From Cyanophora paradoxa CCMP329 (lineage: Eukaryota; Plantae; Glaucophyta): 34,410 nucleotides of DNA. The DNA lies in the NCBI GenBank assembly GCA_004431415.1, contig QPMI01000380.1, forward strand, positions 1 through 34,410, written 5' to 3'. Made by a program: the position numbers and the translations under genes. Under the pieces are notes generated by a model. That model saw nothing but the letters and a program-made list of their open reading frames with translations. It was not told where the DNA came from and ran no database searches. This document shows positions 3,001 through 27,564 of the stretch, one piece after another; within the stretch, counting starts at the first letter, position 1; each line of letters starts with the position of its first letter.

Positions 3001-5678
3001 GGTGTAAGTTTTCTAGTTTCGAGGTTGGGTTTGGGGCGGCCCCGATCGACCCCCGAAATCTCACAGGGGTGCCCACCCACAGGAAACAGCAGGCAGGGAG
3101 CACTGGGATTCGCCAGAGCACCTTGGCTGGTTTGCATGATAGGGAAGGGTGTTCGTTTTCTAGTTTCGAGGTTTGGTTCGGGGCTGCCCCCATCGCCCCC
3201 CGAAATCTCACAGGGGTCCCCACCCACACGAAACTGCAGGCCGGAAGCGCTGGGATTCGCCAGAGCACTCCCGCAGGTTCACATGATAGGGAGGGGTGTT
3301 AGTTTTCTAGTTTCGAGGTTGGGTTCCGGGCTGCCCCCATCGCCCCCCGAAATCTCACAGGGGTGCCACCCACACGAAACAGCAGGAAGGGAGCGCTGGA
3401 ATTCGCCAGAGCACTCTGGCAGGTTTGCATGATAGGGAGGGTGTTAGTTCTCTAGTTTCAAGGTTGGGTTCGGGGCTGCCCTCATCGCCCCCCGAAATGT
3501 CACAGGGGTCCCCACCCACACGAAACAGCTGGAAGGGAGGGCTGAGATTCGCCAGAGCACTCTGGCAGGTTTGTGTGATAGGGAGGGGTGTTAGTTCTCT
3601 AGTTTCAAGGTTGGGTTCGGGGCTGCCCCCATCGCCCCCCGAAATCTCACAGGCATCCCCAGCCACACGAAACAGCAGGCAGGGAGCGCTGGGATTCGCC
3701 AGAGCACCTTGGCTGGTTTGCATGATAGGGAGGGGTGTTATTTTTCTAGTTTCAAGGTTGGGTTCGGGGCGGCCCCGATCGACCCCCGAAATCTCACAGG
3801 GGTGCCCACCCACACGAAACAGCAGGCAGGGAGCGCTGGGATACGCCAGAGCACTCTGGCAGGTTTGCATGATAGGGAGGGGTGTTGGTTTTCTAGTTTC
3901 AAGGTTGGGTTTGGGCCTGCCCTGATTGCCCCGGAATTTTCACAGAAGTCCCCAGCCACACGAAACAGCAGGCGGGGAGCGCTGGGATTCACCAGAGCAC
4001 TCTGGCAGGTTTGCAGGATAGGGAGGGGTGTAAGTTTTCTAGTTTGGAGGTTGGATTCGGGGCGGCCCCGATCGACCCCCAAAATCTCACAGGCGTCCCC
4101 ACCCACAGGAAACTGCAGGCAGGGAGCACTGGGATTCGCCAGAGCATGATAGGGAGGGTGTTAGCTCTCTAGTTTCAAGGTTGGGTTCGGGGCTGCCATC
4201 ATCGCCCCCCGAAATCTCACATGGTCCCCACCCACATAAAAGAGCTGGAAGGGAGTGCTGGGATTCGCCAGAGCACTCTGGCAGGTTTGTGTGATAGGGA
4301 GGGGTGTTATTTTTCTAGTTTCGAGGTTGGGTTTGGGGCGGCCCCGATCGCCCCCCCAAATCTCACTGGGGTCCCCACCCACACGAAACTGCAGGCAGGG
4401 AGCGCTGGGATTCGCCAGAGCACCTTGGCTGGTTTGCATGATAGGGAGGGGTGTTATTTTTCCAGTTTCGAGGTTGGGTTCGGGGCGGCCCCAATCGCCC
4501 CCCGAAATCTCACAGGGGTCCCCACCCACACAAAACAGCAGGCAGGGAGCGCTGGAATTCGCCAGAGCACTCTGGCAGGTTTGTGTGATAGGGAGGGGTG
4601 TTATTTTTCTAGTTTCGAGGTTGGGTTTGGGGCGGCCCCGATCGCCCCCCCAAATCTCACTGGGGTCCCCACCCACACAAAACAGCAGGCAGGGAGCGCT
4701 GGGATTCGCCAGAGCACTCTAGCAGGTTTGCATGATAGGGAGGGGTGTTAGTTTCCTAGTTTCAAGGTTGCCCCCCGAAATCTCACAGGGGTCCCCACCC
4801 ACACGAAACAGCAGGCAGGGAGCGCTGGGATTCGCAGGAGCACTCTGGCAGGTTTGCATAATAGGGAGGGGTGTTAGCTTTTTAATTTCGAGGTTGGGTT
4901 CAGGGCTGCCCTGATTGCCCCCCGAAATCTCACAGGGGTCCCCACCCACACGAAACAGCAGGCAGGGAGTGCTGGGATTCGCCAGAGCACTCTGGCAGGT
5001 TTGCATGATAGGGAGGGGTGTTAGTTTTCTAGTTTCGGGGTTGGGTTTGGGGCTGCCCCCATCGCCCCCCAAAATCTCACAGGGGTCCCCACCCACACGA
5101 AACAGCAGGCAGGGAGCACTGGGATTCGCCAGAGCACTCTGGCAGGTTTGCATGATAGGGAGGGGTGTTAGTTTTCATGCTTTGAGGTTGGAGTCGGGGC
5201 TGCCCCCATTGCCCCCCGAAATCTCACAGGGGGTCCCCACCCACACGAAACAGCAGGCAGGGAGTGCTGGGATTCGCCAGAGCACTCTGGCAGGTTTGCA
5301 TGATAGGGAGGGGTGTTAGTTTTCTAGTTTCGAGGTTGGGTTCGGGGCTGCCCCAATCGCCCCCCGAAATCTCACAGGGGTCCCCACCCACACGAAACAG
5401 CAGGCAGGGGGCGCTGGGATTCGCCAGAGCACTCTGGCAGGTTTGCATGATAGGGAGGGGTGTTAGTTTCCTAGAATCGAGGTTGGGTTGGGGGCTGCCC
5501 CCATCGCCCCCCGAAATCTCACAGGGGTCCCCACCCACACGAAACAGCAGGCAGGGAGCGCTGGGATTCGCAAGAGCACTCTGGCAGGTTTGCATAATAG
5601 GGAGGGGTGTTAGTTTCCTAGAATCGAGGTTGGGTTGGGGGCTGCCCCCATCGCCCCCCGAAATCTCACAGGGGTCCC
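1..5678 (+). repeat. 147-bp tandem satellite, ~39 diverged monomers (runs off the window start)
   Basis: Unit GAAATCTCACAGGGGTCCCCACCCACACGAAACAGCAGGCAGGGAGCGCTGGGATTCGCCAGAGCACTCTGGCAGGTTTGCATGATAGGGAGGGGTGTTAGTTTTCTAGTTTCGAGGTTGGGTTCGGGGCTGCCCCCATCGCCCCCC. AAATC recurs at 416, 562, 709 (146-147 bp). The ORF track repeats every 49 aa. Confidence 0.98.
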
Positions 5679-5828
5679 AAAACTAGAAAACTAACACCCC
5701 TCCCTATCATGCAAACCTGCCAGAGTGCTCTGGCGAATCCCAGCGCTCCCTGCCTGCTGTTTCGTGTGGGTGGGGACCCCTGTGAGATTTCCGGGGGCAA
5801 TCGGGGCAGCCCCGAACCCAACCTCGAA
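5679..5828 (-). repeat. Single inverted monomer of the 147-bp satellite
   Basis: AAAACTAGAAAACTAACACCCC...CCCGAACCCAACCTCGAA is the reverse complement of almost exactly one monomer and directly abuts the forward array. Confidence 0.96.
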
Positions 5829-5901
5829 TGGATCCACTGTTTCCACCACCTGAATAGCCAACAGCCCCAGCTGGGATCCCTATTTTTCGTTTGGGAGGCA
5901 T
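5829..5901 (-). pseudogene. 5' part of a small basic/Gly-rich ORF (MPPKRKIGIPAGAVGYSGGGNSGSI) interrupted by a satellite monomer
   Basis: ATG at 5901 is preceded by AAAGATACA, similar to the ATPase leader. After 25 codons the frame enters satellite sequence (ORF track 5707..5901). Confidence 0.45.
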
Positions 5902-5910
5902 TGTATCTTT
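5899..5910 (-). promoter_or_regulatory. Leader motif AAAGATACA-ATG shared with the ATPase gene
   Basis: Minus strand TAATAAAGATACAATG here versus TAGAAAGATATACAACAATG at 6723-6742. Confidence 0.3.
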
Positions 5911-6020
5911 ATTAGAATGAGAGATAATTTTATAAACCGCGTTTATATCGCATCAATTTATTGCTATGGACTTGGCTTTTCACTTCTTTGGGGGCTTCCT
6001 CTTTTTCTGGTGGTTTCAGT

Positions 6021-6725
6021 TCATCTTTTTTTCTTTTTGGGCTTCCTGTGGAAGCGAGGAAAATCGAAATCTCCAACTAAATCGGCTTTATCAACATAGT
6101 AGCCCACATTATACTTGAAAGATGTATAAACAAGGAATTGGTATGAGTGGACATACTCTTCAAACAGTTTATAGAAATCTTCTTTTCGAGGAAAAGTTGA
6201 AAACTCCTCTGCAAATGCTTCCAGCTCTTTTTGATTGCTTGCACACACCATAATTTCGATATCACAATCACAGCGAATCACACTTGCAACCTTGCGCAGT
6301 TTTTGCGATATTGTAATGAGTGAGCAATTCACATGTCTTGATCTAACATACAGCATCCCCACTGTTTTATCTCGAGTTAAATCGAGCTGGTCATTTTCTA
6401 TCATATCCTCTAAAATAATCAGCATATGGTTAAGATCTTCTCCCCTCTCTCTTTTTTCCTCTCTTTCTTTAATGATCTTTGATACATATTGGGGATCCCA
6501 TGCACCCAGTTGAACAGTAGCAGCTTTATCCCAATAATGTGTAAATGAGGTTGCAGATATAATAAGTGTTGTATCAATCCTTTTGGCATCATGCAGCTGT
6601 TTCAAATAATATTTTACAGCTTCAGTCTTCCCACATCCTGATTTCCCAAGTATGAGTAGTCGAAAAGGGGGTTCTATCATTTCACCAGCATTGAATTCCT
6701 TCAGTTCAGAACTTGGTATAGTCAT
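6021..6725 (-). CDS. A32-like (FtsK/HerA superfamily) viral DNA-packaging ATPase
   Basis: Walker A PFRLLILGKSGCGKT, Walker B MLIILEDM, Arg-finger motif LYVRSRH, then SLITISQ and IR-x-D (typical A32 pattern GRH...hhhhQ...R-x-N). Compact 234 aa. The true C-terminus may extend to 5930 across a homopolymer indel. Confidence 0.88.
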   Translation of the reverse strand: MTIPSSELKEFNAGEMIEPPFRLLILGKSGCGKTEAVKYYLKQLHDAKRIDTTLIISATSFTHYWDKAATVQLGAWDPQYVSKIIKEREEKRERGEDLNHMLIILEDMIENDQLDLTRDKTVGMLYVRSRHVNCSLITISQKLRKVASVIRCDCDIEIMVCASNQKELEAFAEEFSTFPRKEDFYKLFEEYVHSYQFLVYTSFKYNVGYYVDKADLVGDFDFPRFHRKPKKKKR

Positions 6726-6789
6726 TGTTGTATATCTTTCTAAATAAAGACAGATAAAAATAATGCAGGGTGACTGAATATGGTAAGAT

Positions 6790-7371
6790 CTAAAGATTTA
6801 TACGATGTAATCCATCTTTGTCCAAAATTATAAACGAATGCATTAGAGCGCGAACATTAACATCGATTACCTTATCTGAAGGCATGTAGAGGGTGAGGAA
6901 GGAAGAAGAGGAATTTGTTAAATCAACATAACCAGACTGGGCAATATTTCGAATTGCCTTTTCTCCATCAAGGCAGAATGGGAGTCCTGAAAGGACATAT
7001 TTATCAACAACCTTATCCATGTTAGAGCATTTGAAGGCATCAGCAATTAGCTCAGCACCTTTGAGCAGTGGAATTGGCTCAGTGATTTGATCATGAGGCT
7101 TTGCAAAGACCCCGACCTTATAACTGACTGGAGAGGTGTACCTGGGGTATTTCAAGGGATCTAGATTTGATTTTGATAGTGGCAAGCGCTGAAAACGTGC
7201 TTGTACCTCGCCGGGCAATAGTGGGCCCCTATTCACCAGCATGTCATTTGTGCCAGATCGCACAGCAGCACAGCCTCGGAACAGTCTCAAACCGACTTCG
7301 TAATCAAATCTAGCTCCCTCGAGAACCCCCAACAGCATACTGAGGGGTGGTTGAAATATGGGCCCCGGGTT
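6790..7371 (-). pseudogene. 3' part of a probable double-jelly-roll major capsid protein gene (5' part lost, internal part amplified)
   Basis: The frame is open from 7371 to TAG at 6790 (Met at 7338). C-terminus LPFCLDGE...QSGYVDLTNSSSSFLTLY...VNVRALMHSFIILDKDG resembles the NCLDV-type MCP ending (YSFAL.PE..QPSG..NFSR...A.L.L...V.VYA.NYNVLRI..G). It lies 64 bp upstream of the packaging ATPase on the same strand. Confidence 0.55.
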
Positions 7372-10300
7372 TCAATATGGCTGACAGTGAGGATCTGAGC
7401 ACCCATGCATGCAGTGTTCATGATGATCATGATTTGATCATGAGGCTTTGCAAAGACCCCGACCTTATAACTGACTGGAGAGGTGTACCTGGGGTATTTC
7501 AAGGGATCTAGATTTGATTTTGATAGTGGGAAGCGCTGAAAGCGTGCTTGTACCTCGCAGGGCAATAGTGGGCCCCTATTCACCAGCACCAGATCGCAGA
7601 GCAGCACAGCCTCGGAACAGTCTCAAACCGACTTCATAATCAAATCTAGCTCCCTCGAGAACCCCCAACAGCATACTGAGGGGTGGTTGAAATATGGGCC
7701 CCGGGTTTCAATATGGCTGACAGTGAGGATCTGAGCACCCATGCATGCAGTGTTCATGATGATCATGATTTGATCATGAGGCTTTGCAAAGACCCCGACC
7801 TTATAACTGACTGGAGAGGTGTTTCTGGGGTATTTCAAGGGATCTAGATTTGATTTTGATAGTGGGAAGCGCTGAAAACGTGCTTGTACCTTGCTGGGCA
7901 ATAGTGGGCCCCTATTCACCAGCATGTCATTTGTGCCAGATCGCACAGCAGCACAGCCTCGGAACAGTCTCAAACCGACTTCATAATCAAATCTAGCTCC
8001 CTCGAGAACCCCCAACAGCATACTGAGGGGTGGTTGAAATATGGGCCCCGGGTTTCAATATGGCTGACAGTGAGGATCTGAGCATGAAGTGTTCATGATG
8101 ATCATGATTTGATCATGAGGCTTTGCAACGACCCCGACCTTATAACTGACTGGAGAGGTGTACCTGGGGTATTTCAAGGGATCTAGATTTGATTTTGATA
8201 GTGGCAAGCGCTGAAAGCGTGCTTGTACCTCGCGGGGCAATAGTGGGCCCCTATTCACCAGCACCAGATCGCAGAGCAGCACAGCCTCGGAACAGTCTCA
8301 AACCGACTTCATAATCAAATCTAGCTCCCTCGAGAACCCCCAACAGCATACTGAGGGGTGGTTGAAATATGGGCCCCGGGTTTCAATATGGCTGACAGTG
8401 AGGATCTGAGCACCCATGCATGCAGTGTTCATGATGATCATGATTTGATCATGAGGCTTTGCAAAGACCCCGACCTTATAACTGACTGGAGAGGTGTACC
8501 TGGGGTATTTCAAGGGATCTAGATTTGATTTTGATAGTGGCAAGCGCTGAAAACGTGCTTGTACCTCGCCGGGCAATAGTGGGCCCCTATTCACCAGCAT
8601 GTCATTTGTGCCAGATCGCACAGCAGCACAGCCTCGGAACAGTCTCAAACCGACTTCGTAATCAAATCTAGCTCCCTCGAGAACCCCCAACAGCATACTG
8701 AGGGGTGGTTGAAATATGGGCCCCGGGTTTCAATATGGCTGACAGTGAGGATCTGAGCACCCATGCATGCAGTGTTCATGATGATCATGATTTGATCATG
8801 AGGCTTTGCAAAGACCCCGACCTTATAACTGACTGGAGAGGTGTACCTGGGGTATTTCAAAGGATCTAGATTTGATTTTGATAGTGGGAAGCGCTGAAAG
8901 CGTGCTTGTACCTCGCCGGGCAATAGTGGGCCCCTATTCACCAGCATGTCATTTGTGCCAGATCGCACAGCAGCACAGACTCGGAACAGTCTTAAACCGA
9001 CTTCGTAATCAAATCTAGCTCCCTCGAGAACCCCCAACAGCATACTGAGGGGTGGTTGAAATATGGGCCCCGGGTTTCAATATGGCTGACAGTGAGGATC
9101 TGAGCATGCAGTGTTCATGATGATCATGATTTGATCATGAGGCTTTGCAACGACCCCGACCTTATAACTGACTGGAGAGGTGTACCTGGGGTATTTCAAG
9201 GGATCTAGATTTGATTTTGATAGTGGCAAGCGCTGAAAGCGTGCTTGTACCTCGCCGGGCAATAGTGGGCCCCTATTCACCAGCATGTCATTTGTGCCAG
9301 ATCGCACAGCAGCACAGCCTCGGAACAGTCTCAAACCGACTTCATAATCACATCTAGCTCCCTCGAGAACCCCCAACAGCATACTGAGGGGTGGTTGAAA
9401 TATGGGCCCCGGGTTTCAATATGGCTGACAGTGAGGATCTGAGCACCCATGCATGCAGTGTTCATGATGATCATGATTTGATCATGAGGCTTTGCAAAGA
9501 CCCCGACCTTATAACTGACTGGAGAGGTGTTTCTGGGGTATTTCAAGGGATCTAGATTTGATTTTGATAGTGGGAAGCGCTGAAAACGTGCTTGTACCTT
9601 GCTGGGCAATAGTGGGCCCCTATTCACCAGCATGTCATTTGTGCTAGATCGCACAGCAGCACAGACTCGGAACAGTCTCAAACCGACTTCATAATCAAAT
9701 CTAGCTCCCTCGAGAACCCCCAACAGCATACTGAGGGGTGGTTGAAATATGGGCCCCGGGTTTCAATATGGCTGACAGTGAGGATCTGAGCACCCATGCA
9801 TGCAGTGTTCATGACATGATTTGATCATGAGGCTTTGCAAAGACCCCGACCTTATAACTGACTGGAGAGGTGTTTCTGGGGTATTTCAAGGGATCTAGAT
9901 TTGAAAATGATAGTGGCAAGCGCTGAAAGCGTGCTTGTACCTCGCCGGGCAATAGTGGGCCCCTATTCACCAGCATGTCAGTTGTGCCAGATCGCACAGC
10001 AGCACAGCCTCGGAACAGTCTCAAACCGACTTCATAATCAAATCTAGCTCCCTCGAGAACCCCCAACAGCATACTGAGGGGTGGTTGAAATATGGGCCCC
10101 GGGTTTCAATATGGCTGACAGTGAGGATCTGAGCACCCATGCATGCAGTGTTCAATGATCATGATTTGATCATGAGGCTTTGCAAAGACCCCGACCTTAT
10201 AACTGACTGGAGAGGTGTACCTGGGGTATTTCAAGGGATCTAGATTTGAAAATGATAGTGGCAAGCGCTGAAAGCGTGCTTGTACCTCGCCGGGCAATAG

Positions 10301-13300
10301 TGGGCCCCTATTCACCAGCATGTCATTTGTGCCAGATCGCAGAGCAGCACAGCCTCGGAACAGTCTTAAACCGACTTCGTAATCAAATCTAGCTCCCTCG
10401 AGAACCCCCAACAGCATACTGAGGGGTGGTTGAAATATGGGCCCCGGGTTTCAATATGGCTGACAGTGAGGATCTGAGCATGCAGTGTTCATGATGATCA
10501 TGATTTGATCATGAGGCTTTGCAACGACCCCGACCTTATAACTGACTGGAGAGGTGTACCTGGGGTATTTCAAGGGATCTAGATTTGAAAATGATAGTGG
10601 CAAGCGCTGAAAGCGTGCTTGTACCTCGCCGGGCAATAGTGGGCCCCTATTCACCAGCATGTCAGTTGTGCCAGATCGCACAGCAGCACAGCCTCGGAAC
10701 AGTCTCAAACCGACTTCATAATCACATCTAGCTCCCTCGAGAACCCCCAACAGCATACTGAGGGGTGGTTGAAATATGGGCCCCGGGTTTCAATATGGCT
10801 GACAGTGAGGATCTGAGCACCCATGCATGCAGTGTTCATGACATGATTTGATCATGAGGCTTTGCAAAGACCCCGACCTTATAACTGACTGGAGAGGTGT
10901 TTCTGGGGTATTTCAAGGGATCTAGATTTGAAAATGATAGTGGCAAGCGCTGAAAGCGTGCTTGTACCTCGCCGGGCAATAGTGGGCCCCTATTCACCAG
11001 CATGTCAGTTGTGCCAGATCGCACAGCAGCACAGCCTCGGAACAGTCTCAAACCGACTTCATAATCAAATCTAGCTCCCTCGAGAACCCCCAACAGCATA
11101 CTGAGGGGTGGTTGAAATATGGGCCCCGGGTTTCAATATGGCTGACAGTGAGGATCTGAGCACCCATGCATGCAGTGTTCAATGATCATGATTTGATCAT
11201 GAGGCTTTGCAAAGACCCCGACCTTATAACTGACTGGAGAGGTGTACCTGGGGTATTTCAAGGGATCTAGATTTGATTTTGATAGTGGCAAGCGCTGAAA
11301 GCGTGCTTGTACCTCGCCGGGCAATAGTGGGCCCCTATTCACCAGCATGTCATTTGTGCCAGATCGCAGAGCAGCACAGCCTCGGAACAGTCTCAAACCG
11401 ACTTCGTAATCAAATCTAGCTCCCTCGAGAACCCCCAACAGCATACTGAGGGGTGGTTGAAATATGGGCCCCGGGTTTCAATATGGCTGACAGTGAGGAT
11501 CTGAGCATGAAGTGTTCATGATGATCATGATTTGATCATGAGGCTTTGCAACGACCCCGACCTTATGACTGACTGGAGAGGTGTACCTGGGGTATTTCAA
11601 GGGATCTAGATTTGATTTTGATAGTGGCAAGCGCTGAAAACGTGCTTGTACCTCGCCGAACAATAGTGGGCCCCTATTCACCAGCATGTCATTTGTGCCA
11701 GATCGCACAGCAGCACAGCCTCGGAACAGTCTCAAACCGACTTCATAATCAAATCTAGCTCCCTCGAGAACCCCCAACAGCATACTGAGGGGTGGTTGAA
11801 ATATGGGCCCCGGGTTTCAATATGGCTGACAGTGAGGATCTGAGCACCCATGCATGCAGTGTTCATGATGATCATGATTTGATCATGAGGCTTTGCAAAG
11901 ACCCCGACCTTATAACTGACTGGAGAGGTGTACCTGGGGTATTTCAAGGGATCTAGATTTGATTTTGATAGTGGCAAGCGCTGAAAACGTGCTTGTACCT
12001 CGCCGGGCAATAGTGGGCCCCTATTCACCAGCATGTCATTTGTGCCAGATCGCACGGCAGCACAGCCTCGGAACAGTCTTAAACCGACTTCATAAGCAAA
12101 TCTAGCTCCCTCGAGAACCCCCAACAGCATACTGAGGGGTCGTTGAAATATGGGCCCCGGGTTTCAATATGGCTGACAGTGAGGATCTGAGCACCCATGC
12201 ATGCAGTGTTCATGATGATCATGATTTGATCATGAGGCTTTGCAAAGACCCCGACCTTATAACTGACTGGAGAGGTGTACCTGGGGTATTTCAAGGGATC
12301 TAGATTTGATTTTGATAGTGGCAAGCGCTGAAAACGTGCTTGTACCTCGCCGGGCAATAGTGGGCCCCTATTCACCAGCATGTCATTTGTGCCAGATCGC
12401 ACAGCAGCACAGCCTTCGAACAGTCTCAAACCGACTTCATAATCAAATCTAGCTCCCTCGAGAACCCCCAACAGCATACTGAGGGGTGGTTGAAATATGG
12501 GCCCCGGGTTTCAATATGGCTGACAGTGAGGATCTGAGCACCCATGCATTCAGTGTTCATGATGATCATGATTTGATCATGAGGCTTTGCAAAGACCCCG
12601 ACCTTATAACTGACTGGAGAGGTGTACCTGGGGTATTTCAAGGGATCTAGATTTGATTTTGATAGTGGCAAGCGCTGAAAGCGTGCTTGTACCTCGCCGG
12701 GCAATAGTGGGCCCCTATTCACCAGCATGTCATTTGTGCCAGATCGCACAGCAGCACAGCCTCGGAACAGTCTCAAACCGACTTCATAATCAAATCTAGC
12801 TCCCTCGAGAACCCCCAACAGCATACTGAGGGGTGGTTGAAATATGGGCCCGGGTTTCAATATGGCTGACAGTGAGGATCTGAGCACCCATGCATGCAGT
12901 GTTCATGATGATCATGATTTGATCATGAGGCTTTGCAAAGACCCCGACCTTATAACTGACTGGAGAGGTGTACCTGGGGTATTTCAAGGGATCTAGATTT
13001 GATTTTGATAGTGGCAAGCGCTGAAACGTGCTTGTACCTCGCCGGGCAATAGTGGGCCCCTATTCACCAGCATGTCATTTGTGCCAGATCGCACAGCAGC
13101 ACAGCCTCGGAACAGTCTTAAACCGACTTCATAAGCAAATCTAGCTCCCTCGAGAACCCCCAACAGCATACTGAGGGGTGGTTGAAATATGGGCCCCGGG
13201 TTTCAATATGGCTGACAGTGAGGATCTGAGCACCCATGCATGCAGTGTTCATGATGATCATGATTTGATCATGAGGCTTTGCAAAGACCCCGACCTTATA

Positions 13301-16300
13301 ACTGACTGGAGAGGTGTACCTGGGGTATTTCAAGGGATCTAGATTTGATTTTGATAGTGGCAAGCGCTGAAAGCGTGCTTGTACCTCGCCGGGCAATAGT
13401 GGGCCCCTATTCACCAGCATGTCATTTGTGCCAGATCGCACAGCAGCACAGCCTTCGAACAGTCTCAAACCGACTTCATAATCAAATCTAGCTCCCTCGA
13501 GAACCCCCAACAGCATACTGAGGGGTGGTTGAAATATGGGCCCCGGGTTTCAATATGGCTGACAGTGAGGATCTGAGCACCCATGCATTCAGTGTTCATG
13601 ATGATCATGATTTGATCATGAGGCTTTGCAAAGACCCCGACCTTATAACTGACTGGAGAGGTGTACCTGGGGTATTTCAAGGGATCTAGATTTGATTTTG
13701 ATAGTGGCAAGCGCTGAAAGCGCGCTTGTACCTCGCCGGGCAGTAGTGGGCCCCTATACACCAGCATGTCATTTGTGCCAGATTGCAGAGCAGCACAGCC
13801 TCGGAACAGTCTCAAACCGACTTCATAATCAAATCTAGCTCCCTCGAGAACCCCCAACAGCATACTGAGGGGTGGTTGAAATATGGGCCCCGGGTTTCAA
13901 TATGGCTGACAGTGAGGATCTGAGCACCCATGCATGCAGTGTTCATGATGATCATGATTTGATCATGAGGCTTTGCAAAGACCCCGACCTTATAACTGAC
14001 TGGAGAGGTGTACCTGGGGTATTTCAAGGGATCTAGATTTGATTTTGATAGTGGCAAGCGCTGAAAGCGTGCTTGTACCTCGCCGGGCAATAGTGGGCCC
14101 CTATTCACCAGCATGTCATTTGTGCCAGATCGCACAGCAGCACAGCCTCGGAACAGTCTCAAACCGACTTCATAATCAAATCTAGCTCCCTCGAGAACCC
14201 CCAACAGCATACTGAGGGGTGGTTGAAATATGGGCCCCGGGTTTCAATATGGCTGACAGTGAGGATCTGAGCATGAAGTGTTCATGATGATCATGATTTG
14301 ATCATGAGGCTTTGCAACGACCCCGACCTTATAACTGACTGGAGAGGTGTACCTGGGGTATTTCAAAGGATCTAGATTTGATTTTGATAGTGGCAAGCGC
14401 TGAAAACGTGCTTGTACCTCGCCGAACAATAGTGGGCCCCTATTCACCAGCATGTCATTTGTGCCAGATCGCACAGCAGCACAGCCTCGGAACAGTCTCA
14501 AACCGACTTCATAATCAAATCTAGCTCCCTCGAGAACCCCCAACAGCATACTGAGGGGTGGTTGAAATATGGGCCCCGGGTTTCAATATGGCTGACAGTG
14601 AGGATCTGAGCACCCATGCATGCAGTGTTCATGATGATCATGATTTGATCATGAGGCTTTGCAAAGACCCCGACCTTATAACTGACTGGAGAGGTGTACC
14701 TGGGGTATTTCAAGGGATCTAGATTTGATTTTGATAGTGGCAAGCGCTGAAAGCGTGCTTGTACCTCGCCGGGCAATAGTGGGCCCCTATTCACCAGCAT
14801 GTCATTTGTGCCAGATCGCACAGCAGCACAGCCTCGGAACAGTCTCAAACCGACTTCATAATCAAATCTAGCTCCCTCGAGAACCCCCAACAGCATACTG
14901 AGGGGTGGTTGAAATATGGGCCCCGGGTTCCAATATGGCTGACAGTGAGGATCTGAGCACCCATGCATGCAGTGTTCATGATGATCATGATTTGATCATG
15001 AGGCTTTGCAAAGACCCCGACCTTATAACTGACTGGAGAGGTGTACCTGGGGTATTTCAAGGGATCTAGATTTGATTTTGATAGTGGCAAGCGCTGAAAA
15101 CGTGCTTGTACCTCGCCGGGCAATAGTGGGCCCCTATTCACCAGCATGTCATTTGTGCCAGATCGCACAGCAGCACAGCCTCGGAACAGTCTTAAACCGA
15201 CTTCATAAGCAAATCTAGCTCCCTCGAGAACCCCCAACAGCATACTGAGGGGTGGTTGAAATATGGGCCCCGGGTTTCAATATGGCTGACAGTGAGGATC
15301 TGAGCACCCATGCATGCAGTGTTCATGATGATCATGATTTGATCATGAGGCTTTGCAAAGACCCGACCTTATAACTGACTGGAGAGGTGTACCTGGGGTA
15401 TTTCAAGGGATCTAGATTTGATTTTGATAGTGGCAAGCGCTGAAAGCGTGCTTGTACCTCGCCGGCAATAGTGGGCCCTATTCACCAGCATGTCATTTGT
15501 GCCAGATCGCACAGCAGCACAGCCTTCGAACAGTCTCAAACCGACTTCATAATCAAATCTAGCTCCCTCGAGAACCCCAACAGCATACTGAGGGGTGGTT
15601 GAAATATGGGCCCGGGTTTCAATATGGCTGACAGTGAGGATCTGAGCACCCATGCATTCAGTGTTCATGATGATCATGATTTGATCATGAGGCTTTGCAA
15701 AGACCCCGACCTTATAACTGACTGGAGAGGTGTACCTGGGTATTTCAAGGGATCTAGATTTGATTTTGATAGTGGCAAGCGCTGAAAGCGCGCTTGTACC
15801 TCGCCGGCAATAGTGGGCCCTATACACCAGCATGTCATTTGTGCCAGATTGCAGAGCAGCACAGCTCGGAACAGTCTCAAACCGACTTCATAATCAAATC
15901 TAGCTCCCTCGAGAACCCCAACAGCATACTGAGGGTGGTTGAAATATGGGCCCGGGTTTCAATATGGCTGACAGTGAGGATCTGAGCACCCATGCATGCA
16001 GTGTTCATGATGATCATGATTTGATCATGAGGCTTTGCAAAGACCCGACCTTATAACTGACTGGAGAGGTGTACCTGGGGTATTTCAAGGGATCTAGATT
16101 TGATTTTGATAGTGGCAAGCGCTGAAAGCGTGCTTGTACCTCGCCGGGCAATAGTGGGCCCCTATTCACCAGCATGTCAGTTGTGCCAGATCGCACAGCA
16201 GCACAGCCTCGGAACAGTCTCAAACCGACTTCATAATCAAATCTAGCTCCCTCGAGAACCCCCAACAGCATACTGAGGGGTGGTTGAAATATGGGCCCCG

Positions 16301-19300
16301 GGTTTCAATATGGCTGACAGTGAGGATCTGAGCATGAAGTGTTCATGATGATCATGATTTGATCATGAGGCTTTGCAACGACCCCGACCTTATAACTGAC
16401 TGGAGAGGTGTACCTGGGGTATTTCAAAGGATCTAGATTTGATTTTGATAGTGGCAAGCGCTGAAAACGTGCTTGTACCTCGCCGAACAATAGTGGGCCC
16501 CTATTCACCAGCATGTCATTTGTGCCAGATCGCACAGCAGCACAGCCTCGGAACAGTCTCAAACCGACTTCATAATCAAATCTAGCTCCCTCGAGAACCC
16601 CCAACAGCATACTGAGGGGTGGTTGAAATATGGGCCCCGGGTTTCAATATGGCTGACAGTGAGGATCTGAGCACCCATGCATGCAGTGTTCATGATGATC
16701 ATGATTTGATCATGAGGCTTTGCAAAGACCCCGACCTTATAACTGACTGGAGAGGTGTACCTGGGGTATTTCAAGGGATCTAGATTTGATTTTGATAGTG
16801 GCAAGCGCTGAAAGCGTGCTTGTACCTCGCCGGGCAATAGTGGGCCCCTATTCACCAGCATGTCATTTGTGCCAGATCGCACGGCAGCACAGCCTCGGAA
16901 CAGTCTCAAACCGACTTCATAAGCAAATCTAGCTCCCTCGAGAACCCCCAACAGCATACTGAGGGGTCGTTGAAATATGGGCCCCGGGTTTCAATATGGC
17001 TGACAGTGAGGATCTGAGCACCCATGCATGCAGTGTTCATGATGATCATGATTTGATCATGAGGCTTTGCAAAGACCCCGACCTTATAACTGACTGGAGA
17101 GGTGTACCTGGGGTATTTCAAGGGATCTAGATTTGATTTTGATAGTGGCAAGCGCTGAAAGCGTGCTTGTACCTCGCCGGGCAATAGTGGGCCCCTATTC
17201 ACCAGCATGTCATTTGTGCCAGATCGCACAGCAGCACAGCCTCGGAACAGTCTCAAACCGACTTCATAATCAAATCTAGCTCCCTCGAGAACCCCAACAG
17301 CATACTGAGGGGTGGTTGAAATATGGGCCCCGGGTTTCAATATGGCTGACAGTGAGGATCTGAGCACCCATGCATCAGTGTTCATGATGATCATGATTTG
17401 ATCATGAGGCTTTGCAAAGACCCCGACCTTATAACTGACTGGAGAGGTGTACCTGGGTATTTCAAGGGATCTAGATTTGATTTTGATAGTGGCAAGCGCT
17501 GAAAGCGTGCTTGTACCTCGCCGGGCAATAGTGGGCCCCTATCACCAGCATGTCATTTGTGCCAGATCGCAGAGCAGCACAGCCTCGAACAGTCTCAAAC
17601 CGACTTCATAATCAAATCTAGCTCCCTCGAGAACCCCAACAGCATACTGAGGGTGGTTGAAATATGGGCCCGGGTTTCAATATGGCTGACAGTGAGGATC
17701 TGAGCACCCATGCATGCAGTGTTCATGATGATCATGATTTGATCATGAGGCTTTGCAAAGACCCCGACCTTATAACTGACTGGAGAGGTGTACCTGGGGT
17801 ATTTCAAGGGATCTAGATTTGATTTTGATAGTGGCAAGCGCTGAAAGCGTGCTTGTACCTCGCCGGGCAATAGTGGGCCCCTATTCACCAGCATGTCATT
17901 TGTGCCAGATCGCACAGCAGCACAGCCTCGGAACAGTCTCAAACCGACTTCATAATCAAATCTAGCTCCCTCGAGAACCCCCAACAGCATACTGAGGGGT
18001 GGTTGAAATATGGGCCCCGGGTTTCAATATGGCTGACAGTGAGGATCTGAGCACCCATGCATGCAGTGTTCATGATGATCATGATTTGATCATGAGGCTT
18101 TGCAAAGACCCCGACCTTATAACTGACTGGAGAGGTGTACCTGGGGTATTTCAAGGGATCTAGATTTGATTTTGATAGTGGCAAGCGCTGAAAGCGTGCT
18201 TGTACCTCGCCGGGCAATAGTGGGCCCCTATTCACCAGCATGTCATTTGTGCCAGATCGCACAGCAGCACAGCCTCGGAACAGTCTCAAACCGACTTCTA
18301 ATCAAATCTAGCTCCCTCGAGAACCCCAAAGCATACTGAGGGGTGGTTGAAATATGGGCCCGGGTTTCAATATGGCTGACAGTGAGGATCTGAGCATGAA
18401 GTGTTCATGATGATCATGATTTGATCATGAGGCTTTGCAAGACCCCGACCTTATAACTGACTGGAGAGGTGTACCTGGGGTATTTCAAGGGATCTAGATT
18501 TGATTTTGATAGTGGCAAGCGCTGAAACGTGCTTGTACCTCGCCGGGCAATAGTGGGCCCCTATTCACCAGCATGTCATTTGTGCCAGATCGCACAGCAG
18601 CACAGCCTCGGAACAGTCTCAAACCGACTTCATAATCAAATCTAGCTCCCTCGAGAACCCCCAACAGCATACTGAGGGGTGGTTGAAATATGGGCCCCGG
18701 GTTTCAATATGGCTGACAGTGAGGATCTGAGCACCCATGCATGCAGTGTTCATGATGATCATGATTTGATCATGAGGCTTTGCAAAGACCCCGACCTTAT
18801 AACTGACTGGAGAGGTGTACCTGGGGTATTTCAAGGGATCTAGATTTGATTTGATAGTGGCAAGCGCTGAAAGCGTGCTTGTACCTCGCCGGGCAATAGT
18901 GGGCCCCTATTCACCAGCATGTCATTTGTGCCAGATCGCACAGCAGCACAGCCTCGGAACAGTCTCAAACCGACTTCATAATCAAATCTAGCTCCCTCGA
19001 GAACCCCAACAGCATACTGAGGGTGTTGAAATATGGGCCCGGGTTTCAATATGGCTGACAGTGAGGATCTGAGCACCCATGCATGCAGTGTTCATGATGA
19101 TCATGATTTGATCATGAGGCTTTGCAAAGACCCCGACCTTATAACTGACTGGAGAGGTGTACCTGGGTATTTCAAGGGATCTAGATTTGATTTTGATAGT
19201 GGCAAGCGCTGAAAGCGTGCTTGTACCTCGCCGGGCAATAGTGGGCCCCTATTCACCAGCATGTCATTTGTGCCAGATCGCACAGCAGCACAGCCTCGGA

Positions 19301-22300
19301 ACAGTCTCAAACCGACTTCATAATCAAATCTAGCTCCCTCGAGAACCCCCAACAGCATACTGAGGGGTGGTTGAAATATGGGCCCCGGGTTTCAATATGG
19401 CTGACAGTGAGGATCTGAGCACCCATGCATGCAGTGTTCATGATGATCATGATTTGATCATGAGGCTTTGCAAAGACCCCGACCTTATAACTGACTGGAG
19501 AGGTGTACCTGGGGTATTTCAAGGGATCTAGATTTGATTTTGATAGTGGCAAGCGCTGAAAGCGTGCTTGTACCTCGCCGGGCAATAGTGGGCCCCTATA
19601 CACCAGCATGTCATTTGTGCCAGATCGCAGAGCAGCACAGCCTCGGAACAGTCTCAAACCGACTTCATAATCAAATCTAGCTCCCTCGAGAACCCCCAAC
19701 AGCATACTGAGGGGTGGTTGAAATATGGGCCCCGGGTTTCAATATGGCTGACAGTGAGGATCTGAGCACCCATGCATGCAGTGTTCATGATGATCATGAT
19801 TTGATCATGAGGCTTTGCAAAGACCCCGACCTTATAACTGACTGGAGAGGTGTACCTGGGGTATTTCAAGGGATCTAGATTTGATTTTGATAGTGGCAAG
19901 CGCTGAAAGCGTGCTTGTACCTCGCCGGGCAATAGTGGGCCCCTATTCACCAGCATGTCATTTGTGCCAGATCGCACAGCAGCACAGCCTCGGAACAGTC
20001 TCAAACCGACTTCATAATCAAATCTAGCTCCCTCGAGAACCCCAACAGCATACTGAGGGGTGGTTGAAATATGGGCCCCGGGTTTCAATATGGCTGACAG
20101 TGAGGATCTGAGCACCCATGCATGCAGTGTTCATGATGATCATGATTTGATCATGAGGCTTTGCAAAGACCCCGACCTTATAACTGACTGGAGAGGTGTA
20201 CCTGGGGTATTTCAAAGGATCTAGATTTGATTTTGATAGTGGCAAGCGCTGAAAGCGTGCTTGTACCTCGCCGGGCAATAGTGGGCCCCTATTCACCAGC
20301 ATGTCATTTGTGCCAGATCGCACAGCAGCACAGCCTCGGAACAGTCTCAAACCGACTTCGTAATCAAATCTAGCTCCCTCGAGAACCCCCAATAGCATAC
20401 TGAGGGGTGGTTGAAATATGGGCCCCGGGTTTCAATATGGCTGACAGTGAGGATCTGAGCACCCATGCATGCAGTGTTCATGATGATCATGATTTGATCA
20501 TGAGGCTTTGCAAAGACCCCGACCTTATAACTGACTGGAGAGGTGTACCTGGGGTATTTCAAGGGATCTAGATTTGATTTTGATAGTGGCAAGCGCTGAA
20601 AGCGTGCTTGTACCTCGCCGGGCAATAGTGGGCCCCTATTCACCAGCATGTCATTTGTGCCAGATCGCACAGCAGCACAGCCTCGGAACAGTCTTAAACC
20701 GACTTCATAAGCAAATCTAGCTCCCTCGAGAACCCCCAACAGCATACTGAGGGGTGGTTGAAATATGGGCCCCGGGTTTCAATATGGCTGACAGTGAGGA
20801 TCTGAGCACCCATGCATGCAGTGTTCATGATGATCATGATTTGATCATGAGGCTTTGCAAAGACCCCGACCTTATAACTGACTGGAGAGGTGTACCTGGG
20901 GTATTTCAAGGGATCTAGATTTGATTTCGATAGTGGCAAGCGCTGAAAGCGTGCTTGTACCTCGCCGGGCAATAGTGGGCCCCTATTCACCAGCATGTCA
21001 TTTGTGCCAGATCGCACAGCAGCACAGCCTCGGAACAGTCTCAAACCGACTTCGTAATCAAATGTAGCTCCCTCGAGAACCCCCAACAGCACACTGAGGG
21101 GTGGTTGAAATATGGGCCCCGGGTTTCAATATGGCTGACAGTGAGGATCTGAGCACCCATGCATGCAGTGTTCATGATGATCATGATTTGATCATGAGGC
21201 TTTGCAAAGACCCCGACCTTATAACTGACTGGAGAGGTGTACCTGGGGTATTTCAAGGGATCTAGATTTGATTTTGATAGTGGCAAGCGCTGAAAGCGTG
21301 CTTGTACCTCGCCGGGCAATAGTGGGCCCCTATTCACCAGCATGTCATTTGTGCCAGATCGCACGGCAGCACAGCCTCGGAACAGTCTCAAACCGACTTC
21401 ATAATCAAATGTAGCTCCCTCGAGAACCCCCAACAGCACACTGAGGGGTGGTTGAAATATGGGCCCCGGGTTCCAATATGGCTGACAGTGAGGATCTGAG
21501 CACCCATGCATGCAGTGTTCATGATGATCATGATTTGATCATGAGGCTTTGCAAAGACCCCGACCTTATAACTGACTGGAGAGGTGTACCTGGGGTATTT
21601 CAAGGGATCTAGATTTGATTTTGATAGTGGCAAGCGCTGAAAACGTGCTTGTACCTCGCCGGGCAATAGTGGGCCCCTATTCACCAGCATGTCATTTGTG
21701 CCAGATCGCACAGCAGCACAGCCTCGGAACAGTCTCAAACCGACTTCATAATCAAATCTAGCTCCCTCGAGAACCCCCAACAGCATACTGAGGGGTGGTT
21801 GAAATATGGGCCCCGGGTTCCAATATGGCTGACAGTGAGGATCTGAGCACCCATGCATGCAGTGTTCATGATGATCATGATTTGATCATGAGGCTTTGCA
21901 AAGACCCCGACCTTATAACTGACTGGAGAGGTGTACCTGGGGTATTTCAAGGGATCTAGATTTGATTTTGATAGTGGCAAGCGCTGAAAGCGTGCTTGTA
22001 CCTCGCCGGGCAATAGTGGGCCCCTATTCACCAGCATGTCATTTGTGCCAGATCGCACAGCAGCACAGCCTCGGAACAGTCTCAAACCGACTTCGTAATC
22101 AAATCTAGCTCCCTCGAGAACCCCCAATAGCATACTGAGGGGTGGTTGAAATATGGGCCCCGGGTTTCAATATGGCTGACAGTGAGGATCTGAGCACCCA
22201 TGCATGCAGTGTTCATGATGATCATGATTTGATCATGAGGCTTTGCAAAGACCCCGACCTTATAACTGACTGGAGAGGTGTACCTGGGGTATTTCAAGGG

Positions 22301-25300
22301 ATCTAGATTTGATTTTGATAGTGGCAAGCGCTGAAAGCGTGCTTGTACCTCGCCGGGCAATAGTGGGCCCCTATACACCAGCATGTCATTTGTGCCAGAT
22401 CGCACAGCAGCACAGCCTCGGAACAGTCTCAAACCGACTTCGTAATCAAATCTAGCTCCCTCGAGAACCCCCAATAGCATACTGAGGGGTGGTTGAAATA
22501 TGGGCCCCGGGTTTCAATATGGCTGACAGTGAGGATCTGAGCACCCATGCATGCAGTGTTCATGATGATCATGATTTGATCATGAGGCTTGCAAGACCCG
22601 ACCTTATAACTGACTGGAGAGGTGTACCTGGGTATTTCAAGGATCTAGATTTGATTTGATAGTGGCAAGCGCTGAAAGCGTGCTTGTACTCGCGGGCAAT
22701 AGTGGGCCCTATTCACCAGCATGTCATTGTGCCAGATCGCACAGCAGCACAGCTCGGAACAGTCTCAAACCGACTTCATAATCAAATCTAGCTCCTCGGA
22801 ACCCCAACAGCTACTGAGGGGTTGAATATGGCCCGGGTTTCATATGGTGACAGTGAGGATCTGAGCACCATGCATGCAGTGTTCATATGATCATGATTTG
22901 ATCATGAGCTTTGCAAAGACCCCGACCTTATAACTGACTGGAGAGGTGTACCTGGGGTATTTCAAGGGATCTAGATTTGATTTTGATAGTGGCAAGCGCT
23001 GAAAGCGTGCTTGTACCTCGCCGGGCAATAGTGGGCCCTATCACCAGCATGTCATTTGTGCCAGATCGCACAGCAGCACAGCCTCGAACAGTCTCAAACC
23101 GACTTCATAATCAAATCTAGCTCCTCGAGAACCCCAACAGCATACTGAGGGTGGTTGAAATATGGCCCGGGTTTCAATATGGCTGACAGTGAGGATCTGA
23201 GCACCCATGCATGCAGTGTTCATGATGATCATGATTTGATCATGAGGCTTTGCAAAGACCCCGACCTTATAACTGACTGGAGAGGTGTACTGGGTATTCA
23301 AGGGATCTAGATTGATTTGATAGTGGCAAGCGCTGAAAGCGTGCTTGTACCTCGCCGGGCAATAGTGGGCCCCTATTCACCAGCATGTCATTTGTGCCAG
23401 ATCGCACAGCAGCACAGCCTCGGAACAGTCTCAAACCGACTTCATAATCAAATCTAGCTCCCTCGAGAACCCCAACAGCATACTGAGGGTGTTGAAATAT
23501 GGGCCCCGGTTTCAATATGGCTGACAGTGAGGATCTGAGCACCCATGCATGCAGTGTTCATGATGATCATGATTTGATCATGAGGCTTTGCAAAGACCCG
23601 ACCTATAACTGACTGGAGAGGTGTACCTGGGTATTTCAAGGGATCTAGATTTGATTTTGATAGTGGCAAGCGCTGAAACGTGCTTGTACCTCGCCGGGCA
23701 ATAGTGGGCCCTATTCACCAGCATGTCATTTGTCCAGATCGCACAGCAGCACAGCTCGAACAGTCTCAAACCGACTTCATATCAAATCTGCTCCTCGAGA
23801 ACCAAGATACTGGTGTTGAATATGGCGGTTCATTGGTGACAGTGAGATCTGAGACCATTGCAGTGTTCATGATCATTGACATGGCTTTGCAAAGACCTTA
23901 AATGACTGGAGAGGTGTACTGGGTATTCAGGCTAGATTTGATTATAGTGAGCGTGCTTGTACCGCGGCAATAGTGGCCCTATTCACATGTCATTTGTGCA
24001 GATCGCACAGCAGCACAGCTCGGAACAGTCTCAACGACTTCGTAATCAATCTACTCCCTGAGAACCCCAAGCATACTGAGGGTGGTTGAAATATGGCCCG
24101 GGTTTCATATGGCTGACAGTGAGGATCTGAGCACCCATGCATGCAGTGTTATGATTCATGATTTGATCATGAGGCTTTGCAAAGACCCGACTTATAACTG
24201 ACTGGAGAGTGTACTGGGTATTCAGGATCTAGATTTGATTTTGATAGTGCAAGCGCTGAAAGCGTGCTTGTACCTCGCGGGCAATAGTGGCCCTATACAC
24301 AGCATGTATTGTGCCAGATCGCAAGCGCACAGCTCGAACAGTCTCAACCGACTTCGTATAATCTAGCTCCTCGAGAACCCCAATAGCACTGAGGGGTGAA
24401 ATATGGCCCGGGTTCAATGGTACAGTAGGATCGACACCCACATCAGTGTTCATGATGATATGATTTGATCATGAGCTTTGCAAGACCCGACTAAAGACGG
24501 AGGTGTACCGGGTATCAAGGACTAGATGATTGATAGTGGCAACGCTGAACTGTGACTCGATGCATACCAGCATTTGCCAATGCAGCAGCAGCTCGGAACA
24601 GTCTCAACCGACTCATAATCAAATCTAGCTCCTCGAGACCCCAACAGATACGGGTGTTGAATATGGCCCGGTTTCAATATGGCTGACAGTGAGGATCTGA
24701 GCACCATGCATGCAGTGTCATGATGATCATGATTTGATCATGAGGCTTGCAAGACCCGACTTATAACTGACTGGAAGGTGTACTGGGTATTCAAGGATCT
24801 AGATTTTTGAAGTGCAAGCGCTGAAGCGTGCTTGTACTCGCGGCATAGTGGGCCCTATTCACCAGCATGTCATTTGTGCCAGATCGCACAGCAGCACAGC
24901 TCGGAACAGTCTCAAACGACTTCATAATCAATCTAGCTCCTCGAGAACCCCAACAGCATACTGAGGGTGGTTGAAATATGGCCCGGGTTTCATATGGCTG
25001 ACAGTGAGGATCTGAGCACCATGCATGCAGTGTTCATGATGATCATGATTTGATCATGAGGCTTGCAAGACCCGACTTATAACTGACTGGAGAGGTGTAC
25101 CTGGGTATTTCAAAGATCTAGATTTGATTTGATAGTGGCAAGCGCTGAAGCGTGCTTGTACTCGCCGGCAATAGTGGGCCCTATTCACAGCATGTATTTG
25201 TGCCAGATCGCACAGCACAGACTCGGACAGTCTTAAACGACTTCAAATCAATCTAGCTCCTCGAGAACCCCAACAGCATACTGAGGGTGGTTGAAATATG

Positions 25301-25454
25301 GGCCCCGGGTTTCAATATGGCTGACAGTGAGGATCTGAGCACCCATGCATGCAGTGTTCATGATGATCATGATTTGATCATGAGGCTTTGCAAAGACCCC
25401 GACCTTATAACTGACTGGAGAGGTGTACCTGGGGTATTTCAAGGGATCTAGATT
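7083..25454. repeat. 347-bp head-to-tail tandem array, ~54 copies, derived from the capsid-like coding sequence
   Basis: TGATTTGATCATGAGG recurs at 7083 and 7430 (347 bp) and onward. ORF starts step by 347 (8696, 9043; 11783, 12130, 12477; 20398, 20745, 21092). The terminal copy reads in frame into unique coding sequence (KPHDQI|TEPIPLL). Confidence 0.98.
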
Positions 25455-26311
25455 CCGCCCCGTCCCGTCCCGCGAGCCGCGCCTCCGCCCCGCCCCACGA
25501 GCCCTGATGCCGCCCGCTGCGCCTCCGCCCCCGCCGGCGAGCTGCGCCGCCGCCCGCCGCGCCTCTGCCCGCCCAGCCAGCCTCGCGCGCGCCTCCACGC
25601 CACCGCCGCCCCGTCCGGCGCGCCGCGCCGCCGCCCGCCGCGCCTTCGCCCCGCCCGGCGAGCCGCGCCGCCGCCCGCCGCGCCTCCGCCCCGCCCGGCG
25701 CGCCTCGCCCGGCGACTCCTTGCCTCCGCGGCCCTGCCCGGCGTGCCGCGCCGCCGCCCGCCGCGCCTCTGCCCCGCCCGGAGCGCCTCGCCCGGCGCCT
25801 CCGCGCCTCCGCCGCCCCGCCCGGCGCGCCACGCCGCGCCCGCCGCGCCTCCGCCCCGCCCGGCGCGCCTCGGCCGGCTCCTCCGCGCCTCTGCCGCCCT
25901 GCCCGGCGTGCCGCGCCGCCGCCCGCCGCGCCTCTGCCCCGCCCGGCGCGCCTCGCCCGGCGCCTCCGCGCCTCCGCCGCCCACCCGGCGCGCCACGCCG
26001 CCGCCGCCGCGCCTCCGCCCCGCCCGGCGCGCCTCGGCCGGCTCCTCCGCGCCTCTGCCGCCCCGCCGGCGCGCCGCGCCGCCGCCGCCGCGCCTCCGCC
26101 CCGCCCGGCGAGGCGCGCCGCGCGCCGCCACCCGCCGGCTGGGGGCGTGGTAGTTCTCTGCGCCGGAGGTGCAGGGAGCTGCTGCCACAGGCGGGGCGCT
26201 GGGAGTTTGACACGATGGCGCTCGACGAGGCCACCCAGCGCCGCGCCCTCGCGTCCGCCCGCCTCGCCCCGTCGCGCCCCTCGCCCGCCCCGAGGCTCCC
26301 CACCTCTCCAC
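25455..26311. repeat. Extremely GC-rich low-complexity block with an internal 165-bp duplication
   Basis: Almost only C and G up to ~26140, with a recurrent CGCCGCGCCTC(C/T)GCCCCGCCCGGCG module. GCCCTGCCCGGCGTGCCGCG starts at both 25731 and 25896. Confidence 0.85.
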
Positions 26312-27032
26312 GGACCCCTGTCCTGTGAGATTTCAGGGGGCGATGGGGGCAGGCCCAAACACAACCTTGAAACTAGAAAACCAAACCCCTCCCTATCATG
26401 CAAACCTGCCAGAGTGCTCTGGCGAATCCCAGCGCTCCCTGCCTGCTGTTTCGTGTGGGTGGGGACCCCTGTGAAATTTCGGGGGGCGGTAGGGGCCACC
26501 CCGAACCCAACCTTGAAACTAGAAAACTAACACCCCTCCCTATCATGCAAACCTGCCAGAGTGCTCTGGCGGATCCCAGCGCTCCCCGCCTGCTGTTTCG
26601 TGTGGGTGGGGACCCCTGTGAGATTTCGGGGGGCGATGGGGGCAGCCCCGCACCCAACCTTGAAACTAAAAAACTAACACCCCTTCCAATCATGCAAACC
26701 TGCCAGAGTGCTCTGGCGGATCCCAGCACTCCCTGCCTGCTGTTTCGTGTGGGGGGGGCGATGGGGGCAGCCCCGAACCCAACCTCGAAACTAGAAAACT
26801 CACACCCCTCCCCATCATGCAAACCTGCCAGAGTGCTCCGGTGAATCCAAGCGCTCCCCGCCTGCTGTTTCGTGTGGGTGGGGACCCCTGTGAGATTTCG
26901 GGGGGCGATCGGGGCAGCCCCAAACCCAACCTCGAAACTAGAAAACTCACACCCCTCCCCATCATGCAAACCTGCCAGAGTGCTCTGGCGGATCCCAGTA
27001 CTCCCTGCCTGCTGTTTCGTGTGGGTGGGGAC
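26312..27032 (-). repeat. ~5 inverted monomers of the 147-bp satellite
   Basis: Reverse-complement monomers from GGACCCCTGTCCTGTGAGATTT to GTGGGTGGGGAC. One monomer has an internal deletion near 26750. Confidence 0.96.
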
Positions 27033-27111
27033 CGTCGCCAATCAGATTAACCGAGTCTCCAACCGTCAACCGTAAAAAAAGTCAAAACAGTCAAGTCGTG
27101 GACCGTCAACA

Positions 27112-27166: not shown

Positions 27167-27205
27167 TAAAAACGAAAAACAAAAAAATAAAAAAATTGAA
27201 AATTT

Positions 27206-27538: not shown

Positions 27539-27564
27539 TTCCTACTATACGGATATATAATATT

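Follow-up and report, generated by a model that had tools for sequence, protein, structure and literature searches.

A reversed block between satellite arrays of Cyanophora paradoxa, most economically read as an inversion

In a 34,410-nucleotide stretch of Cyanophora paradoxa CCMP329 DNA (contig QPMI01000380.1; referred to here as the window), two arrays of a 147-bp satellite run in the same direction on either side of a block that holds satellite in the opposite orientation, which raises the question of whether that block was inverted in place. We consider the best reading, at a probability of about 0.5, to be that 5679-27027 was reversed within the satellite by an end-joining inversion at short homology. 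The satellite features on which the argument turns are as follows.

1..5678, plus strand: left array of the 147-bp satellite, 39 monomers, ending at monomer phase 6
5673..5678, plus strand: left copy of the inverted overlap, GGTCCC, within the quasi-palindrome GGGG-T-CCCC
5679..5828, minus strand: 150 bp of reversed satellite, 3 bp longer than one monomer, running from phase 98 to phase 100
26312..27033, minus strand: satellite in reverse, five monomers; phase 1 at 27033, phase 5 at 26312
27028..27033, minus strand: right copy of the inverted overlap, GGGACC
27662..34410, plus strand: right array of the 147-bp satellite, restarting at phase 8-11

As the original prediction stated, the forward array stops at 5678, where its last letters are CACAGGGGTCCC, and minus-orientation satellite is found at both ends of the block (the 5679-5828 piece and the five monomers, 26322-27033). 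The reverse complement starts with GTCCCCACCCACACG when read from 27032 and does continue the monomer unbroken at the left junction, and a single flip does make all of the satellite co-directional. The inverted duplication, previously given as GTCCC, is real but is 6 bp long (GGTCCC/GGGACC) rather than 5, and, given this overlap, the segment that can be flipped cleanly is 5679-27027. One orientation switch is convergent and the other divergent, complementary types of the kind that a single inversion gives. Further, flipping the block also brings 26312 (phase 5) into phase with 27662-65 (phase 8-11), a second such pair.

If phases were uniform, a single end pair would fall within ±6 bp of phase with P = 0.088, four of the six ends within 8 bp with P = 0.007 and, for the best pairing, all three end/start pairs in phase with P = 0.004; the observed phase pattern exceeds uniform chance. 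However, because satellite ends cluster on one palindrome (GGGG-T-CCCC carries four of the six, and phases 1 and 5 lie symmetrically about its centre), the pattern is weaker proof of this particular flip, and pairing 5678 with 27662-65 and 26312 with 27033 matches phase equally well. Reading the inversion from satellite phase, as was proposed, therefore gives the most economical model, but its phase match fits the other pairing too. TAGTTTTGGG, the satellite variant needed to read through the other join, is confined on the plus strand to the two opening monomers of the right array, and this array beyond about 29.3 kb resembles a collapsed consensus. The last left monomers and the five reversed monomers have no variants in common in any of four pairs, a test that is neutral between the models because 25 of 52 pairs of true neighbours share none either. 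We note that GGACCGTC stands at the junction (27029) and is repeated within the leader of the adjoining DUF5710 island (27100), and GGACC may therefore be native to the leader and act as microhomology. For the 5679-5828 piece, no exact template was found in the window, the nearest having 5 mismatches, and a fold-back of the neighbouring monomers was ruled out as its source (11 mismatches to the template; phase 6 against phase 100 at the junction).

The remaining features of the window comprise fragments of viral type, a second tandem array and a GC-rich block.

5829..5929, minus strand: region 3' of the ATPase gene; the alignment of a diverged family member extends as far down as 5827
5930..6725, minus strand: A32-like packaging ATPase gene (Pox_A32, E 6.7e-12; relative P0001, 60%)
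6790..7082, minus strand: likely capsid gene 3' end, about 97 codons (P0003 match, E 3e-29, 65%)
7083..25454, no strand assigned: 347-bp tandem array, about 53 copies, not capsid-derived
25455..26311, no strand assigned: GC-rich block, 88% GC, containing an 83-bp repeat
27034..27205, no strand assigned: AT-rich "leader" with short internal repeats
27206..27541, minus strand: two-domain DUF5710 ORF (E 3.3e-31)

A profile search of the window ORFs matched the ATPase to Pox_A32 at 45.8 bits (cut-off 22.8), and its frame is interrupted in a T-rich stretch between 6048 and 6034. The 6790-7082 segment is likely the tail of a double-jelly-roll major capsid gene, which lacks its first ~357 codons and is cut off by the 347-bp array. 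The nearest capsid relative, P0003, bears the label Cyanophora paradoxa and gave values of 0.97-0.98 against the Capsid_N and Capsid_NCLDV clusters (recognition 1773, i.e. below 2300; family shares 11-18%); its single-sequence fold had a pLDDT of 34. For the capsid, Pfam gave no match and PDB none under E 0.3, and searches found neither further P0003 homologs nor longer homologs of the 193-aa frame. P0004-P0006, which are TPR proteins with a short matching stretch, were dismissed as chance matches. The known relatives of this capsid-plus-ATPase family are two ATPase homologs and one capsid homolog; no related loci were seen among the viral and metagenome contigs scanned, and Rfam gave no match.

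The DUF5710 element is carried on contigs of 4057 and 4918 nt in public runs, and 27228-27665 is identical at 433 of 438 positions to such a longer element, which continues past 27665; the right edge of the island is a plain truncation of a longer element. Depth is 48-148 over the leader versus 285-467 over the element, from which we infer a second leader copy with a different left neighbour, departing from the window at about 27045 and not at 27034. On the ATPase side, contigs of the diverged family that reach 5827 have depths of 860, 1273 and 723 among the matches listed and lie off the leader, where depth among the same matches is at most 196, 349 and 81; in run X2 the diverged member extends 222 nt past 5827, unlike the window. 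The capsid tail, A32 ATPase and DUF5710 pieces belong to a multi-copy family of Polinton-like type, and the locus is a decayed viral remnant, with a truncated capsid and a broken ATPase frame. Criteria for Polinton-like viruses include an integrase, a polymerase, a minor capsid protein and a length of 14-40 kb; none of these three genes was recognised among the scanned window ORFs. An endogenous giant virus (Nucleocytoviricota) would be expected to show NCLDV hallmark genes besides capsid and ATPase along a long region; viral-type DNA in the window amounts to about 1.9 kb only. In this fragment, the leader, island and ATPase flank have no long match elsewhere in the window that would indicate terminal repeats. 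The flip had also been expected to yield one contiguous viral fragment, which it does not, as 150 bp of satellite still part the ATPase flank from the DUF5710 island; the two are joined in none of the contig matches listed.

The GC-rich block is likely host DNA. The 347-bp unit was ruled out as amplified capsid sequence, with P0003 matching 6793-7080 only; two of its frames gave no Pfam match and one gave no Atlas match above 0.76. From about 22.6 to 25.4 kb this array contains many 1-bp deletions (about 20 in each of the two last full units), and its right end is thinly supported.

In the inversion model, a composite of GC-rich DNA, the 347-bp array and the multi-copy fragments would have entered the satellite array nearly in phase, at a site that in the flipped state has end phase 5 and restart phase 8-11. 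One inversion, by end joining of microhomology type through the common 6 bp, would have followed, after breaks within the satellite palindrome and next to the DUF5710 leader; this order of events is inferred. The 150-bp reversed monomer may be repair filler copied from satellite or an earlier insertion of one unit. Inverted duplications at inversion ends, arising from staggered breaks or from MMEJ/MMBIR, are described in the part of PMC7584159 consulted.

It is possible, if unlikely, that nothing was inverted in place and that a 22-kb block, 5679-27661, was instead inserted in reverse into continuous satellite, its satellite pieces coming from another locus or from later inserts of whole monomers. 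This fits almost as well as the inversion. The two flanking arrays already run in the same direction and almost in phase, with only 1-4 bp lost between phase 6 on the left and phase 8-11 on the right; the DUF5710 ORF, capsid tail and ATPase already share the minus strand as the window stands; and the truncated right edge of the island is consistent with such an insertion. Further, the five reversed monomers (which include a tandem duplication of 5 bp at 26317-26326) lie between two direct copies of GGACC (26312, 27029) and have variants of their own, seen in no other monomer (e.g. C43, in three of the five versus 0 of 87). However, on this account the 6-bp in-phase overlap would be a matter of chance or of a hot spot at the palindrome, and the two internal satellite pieces demand additional events.

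More doubtful is an assembly misjoin, i.e. two loci fused via the 347-bp array or a chimeric left junction. The one-base deletions at 22.6-25.4 kb are like those of raw reads, the right array looks collapsed, and 5678/5679, like 5828/5829 and 27661/27666, is crossed by none of the contig matches listed. In contrast, contigs of two of four public runs read through the right junction (27033/27034) with 0 differences: 27007-27075 in X1 (depth 60) and 27005-27075 in X2 (depth 107). Their satellite portions, at 27 and 29 letters, fall below the 31-letter rule. Runs X5 and X17 have zero cover over 27046-27093. Because contigs drop rare variants, missing cover here, at the left junction and for window-type letters in the middle of the ATPase is no evidence of absence. 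Of the two junctions, the right one has contig support in half of the runs, and the left one is absent among the matches listed. One-base deletions are nearly absent from the monomers around both junctions, the left junction lacks the mirror symmetry of a fold-back, and a misjoin would have to produce two complementary in-phase switches by chance.

Improbable is a retroviral-type integrase (5-6 bp stagger), of the sort found in Polinton-like viruses, that prefers the palindrome, with the 6-bp overlap as a target-site duplication flipped in a reaction, one-ended or intramolecular, that started from an element end at 27034: the overlap matches the 6-bp duplication of rve integrases in the consulted part of PMC12220804, and the mirrored phases and four clustered ends agree with it, but the window showed no recognisable integrase, a direct 5-6 bp target-site duplication is absent (the two copies are inverted, and the left one borders satellite instead of an element end), depth over the leader is low relative to the element, and the second leader copy's divergence at about 27045 is unlike a shared terminus. 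We regard as a similarly long shot the wider idea that a Polinton-like viral integrase targets the 9-bp palindrome of a nucleosome-length satellite and, by reactions with a 5-6 bp stagger, inserts into, inverts and reshuffles the array, so that a virus family with DUF5710 as its cargo gene hides in and remodels the main host satellite.

The preferred inversion is an ordinary, common kind of event and, taken alone, matters little, since the literature already documents such inversions well, as it does degraded Polinton-like fragments in protist genomes. The locus does flag a capsid-plus-ATPase family that exists in many copies and of which very few relatives are known, and it indicates that satellite phase continuity is weak proof of inversion when breaks favour one phase. 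If breakpoints cluster on the palindrome genome-wide, this would suggest that the satellite holds a fragile site or is targeted by an integrase.

A Cyanophora paradoxa PLV is mentioned in the consulted part of PMC12220804, and DUF5710 together with endogenous elements was not found in the literature searched. As in the protist endogenous Polinton-like viruses described in the parts of PMC10120064 and PMC12220804 consulted, a likely capsid gene adjoins an A32 packaging ATPase, GC is low relative to host repeats, and there are many copies in several subfamilies; unlike in those descriptions, only fragments are present here, terminal repeats, integrase, polymerase and minor capsid were not seen in the window, and capsid features point to NCLDV-type clusters. 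Inversion O7 of Drosophila subobscura, as portrayed in the consulted part of PMC7584159, likewise combines a reversed block, a short duplication in inverted orientation at its two ends, filler-like sequence at one junction and breakpoints in previously rearranged DNA, although the duplication here is 6 bp only and lies within a satellite palindrome. Strand switches and inversions in human centromere satellites, so far as the accounts consulted describe them, also reverse monomer orientation locally within an array, whereas the reversed block here consists mainly of non-satellite DNA, including viral genes and another tandem array.

Most of the window is tandem DNA, and between its tandem regions lie two AT-rich islands, arranged as follows.

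1-5678 and 27662-34410, + strand: 147-bp satellite, forward
5679-5828 and 26312-27033, - strand: reversed 147-bp satellite
7083-25454: 347-bp tandem array
25455-26311: GC-rich block, 88% GC, containing an 83-bp repeat
First AT-rich island: A32-like packaging ATPase (Pox_A32, E 6.7e-12) plus the 3' end of a second gene
Second AT-rich island: two-domain DUF5710 ORF (E 3.3e-31)

The GC-rich block had no Pfam match in six frames and no Rfam match. The local reversal of the segment between 5679 and 27033 looks real, and the description of the satellite ends in the original prediction was correct apart from the overlap length and the satellite left over. The inverted duplication is present at both breakpoints, with a length of 6 bp (5673-5678 and 27028-27033) rather than 5 bp. 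Further, flipping 5679-27027 would not give the one contiguous viral fragment that had been proposed, as the ATPase flank (5829-5929) and the DUF5710 island would remain separated by 150 bp of satellite, 3 bp more than one monomer.

We next give the phase of the six satellite ends, numbering the 147-bp monomer from GGTCC.

5678: phase 6
5679: phase 100
5828: phase 98
26312: phase 5
27033: phase 1
27662-27665: phase 8-11

Four of the six lie on or beside GGGG-T-CCCC, one of three imperfect palindromes in the monomer. The probability is 0.088 for one pair of ends at most 6 bp apart in phase, 0.007 for four of six inside 8 bp of phase and 0.004 for three in-phase pairs when the best pairing is chosen. 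The four palindrome ends admit two pairings, that of an inversion (5678 with 27033, 26312 with 27662) and that of a reverse insertion (5678 with 27662, 26312 with 27033), and one coincidence remains under either. Monomer variants do not discriminate, since none is common across each proposed join but none is common in 25 of 52 true neighbor pairs either.

We favor an end-joining inversion, at a probability of roughly 50%, as a single event accounts for the two reversed pieces and two details are consistent with microhomology: the AT-rich leader (27034-27205) contains a second copy of GGACCGTC, and the satellite variant that would span the second join is confined to the first two monomers of the right array. 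Insertion of 5679-27661 in reverse into a satellite array, with which the co-directional and in-phase state of the outer arrays agrees, is possible but doubtful. An assembly misjoin is unlikely; contigs of runs X1 (27007-27075, depth 60) and X2 (27005-27075, depth 107) bear out the right junction (27033/27034), crossing it with 0 differences, their satellite sides (27 and 29 letters) being slightly below the 31-letter rule. Neither X5 nor X17 covers 27046-27093, and no contig among the matches listed crosses the left junction (5678/5679), which satellite would swamp. A rearrangement driven by an integrase is improbable. PMC12220804 ascribes 5-6 bp duplications to the rve integrase.

These four runs, all compared as contigs, and one of which may be the source of the window itself, belong to 22 from a single organism retrieved with 5828-7082; 20 of the 22 contain part of that query and none contains half or more.

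Several features of the satellite were also noted. Adjoining the GC-rich block, 26317-26326 is a 5-bp tandem duplication of phase 143-147 resembling a slippage or excision footprint. Two distant monomers, at 139-144 and 26753-26758, have lost almost the same stretch between two C-runs (phase 134 to 4-5). Across 1-4660, inner left monomers have mosaic variants in common (4.3 per monomer), which edge monomers mostly lack (0.7-1.4). The monomers of 29260-34410 are near-identical (0.8 substitutions each), yet most carry 1-6 one-base deletions; this stretch is likely a collapsed repeat consensus.

The DUF5710 island (27228-27665) is a cut piece of a longer homogeneous element (433/438 identical), represented by contigs 4057 and 4918 nt long at a depth of about 285-467. 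If the lowest depth class (40-100) is single copy, this would correspond to some 5-7 copies, depth not being copy number. Judged by depth, most copies diverge from the window left of 27228. Once the listed contigs are subtracted, a depth of about 52 (X1) and 95 (X2) remains at 27046-27075, which implies that the leader exists in another copy, flanked differently on its left. The leader also holds, at 27192-27199, the sole AAAATTGA of the window, a motif of giant-virus early promoters, although its occurrence here may be chance in A-rich DNA.

Former contiguity of the two islands was examined through contigs of a diverged ATPase subfamily that extend to 5827, one continuing 222 nt beyond. Nothing on the leader reaches their depths (860, 1273 and 723), the maxima there being 196, 349 and 81, indicating that they do not lie on it at 85% likeness, a weak test because the subfamily itself is only about 86% alike. 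The viral and metagenome contigs scanned held no related loci.

The ATPase has two relatives among 159 candidates (60% and 40% identity). The reading frame of the ATPase is interrupted between 6048 and 6034. Contigs of the compared runs differ from the window in this T-rich run, and the interruption may thus be specific to this copy or an error of assembly. The truncated frame upstream (6790-7082), likely a capsid tail, has a good match to P0003 alone (E 3e-29), which EukProt labels Cyanophora paradoxa, so that the host is probably an alga. By language-model features, P0003 is similar to capsid clusters (0.97-0.98, of weak recognition value); Pfam, PDB and a single-sequence fold gave no confirmation of capsid identity. 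All four runs have contigs covering 5828-7080, with depths between about 60 and more than 4000 and in subfamilies that are about 86-99% alike, and these depths show that the region belongs to a multi-copy family with diverged subfamilies. In one subfamily the ratio of depths between runs departs from that of the others (1009/461/1074/1107 versus 305/467/285/310 in the DUF5710 element), a hint that copy number may differ.

The 347-bp array (18.4 kb, 49% GC) starts exactly where the putative capsid gene is truncated. Capsid origin of its unit was ruled out, the P0003 match being confined to 6793-7080. Deletion variants of 8 and 11 bp recur; the last two full units carry 23 and 20 one-base deletions, and the anchor is lost three times past 22.5 kb. 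These late deletions and losses make the link joining the halves of the reversed block its weakest point.

Endogenous Polinton-like viruses are described as common across protists in the part of PMC10120064 consulted, the supplements of which may include this family. The consulted part of PMC12220804 reports a Cyanophora paradoxa Polinton-like virus, and its supplements, as far as covered, hold three Cyanophora rows and, by term search, no DUF5710. Literature searches gave nothing for DUF5710 with "endogenous", one paper, on Acinetobacter, for DUF5710 alone and, among the matches listed, nothing on point for Polinton-like insertion into satellite DNA. The fragments in the window work like the Polinton-like morphogenetic module described in the same part of PMC12220804, of which they are candidate members. 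Likewise, the reversal works as in known inversions with short inverted duplications, which, according to the portion of PMC7584159 consulted, can arise at inversion ends via staggered breaks, MMEJ or MMBIR.
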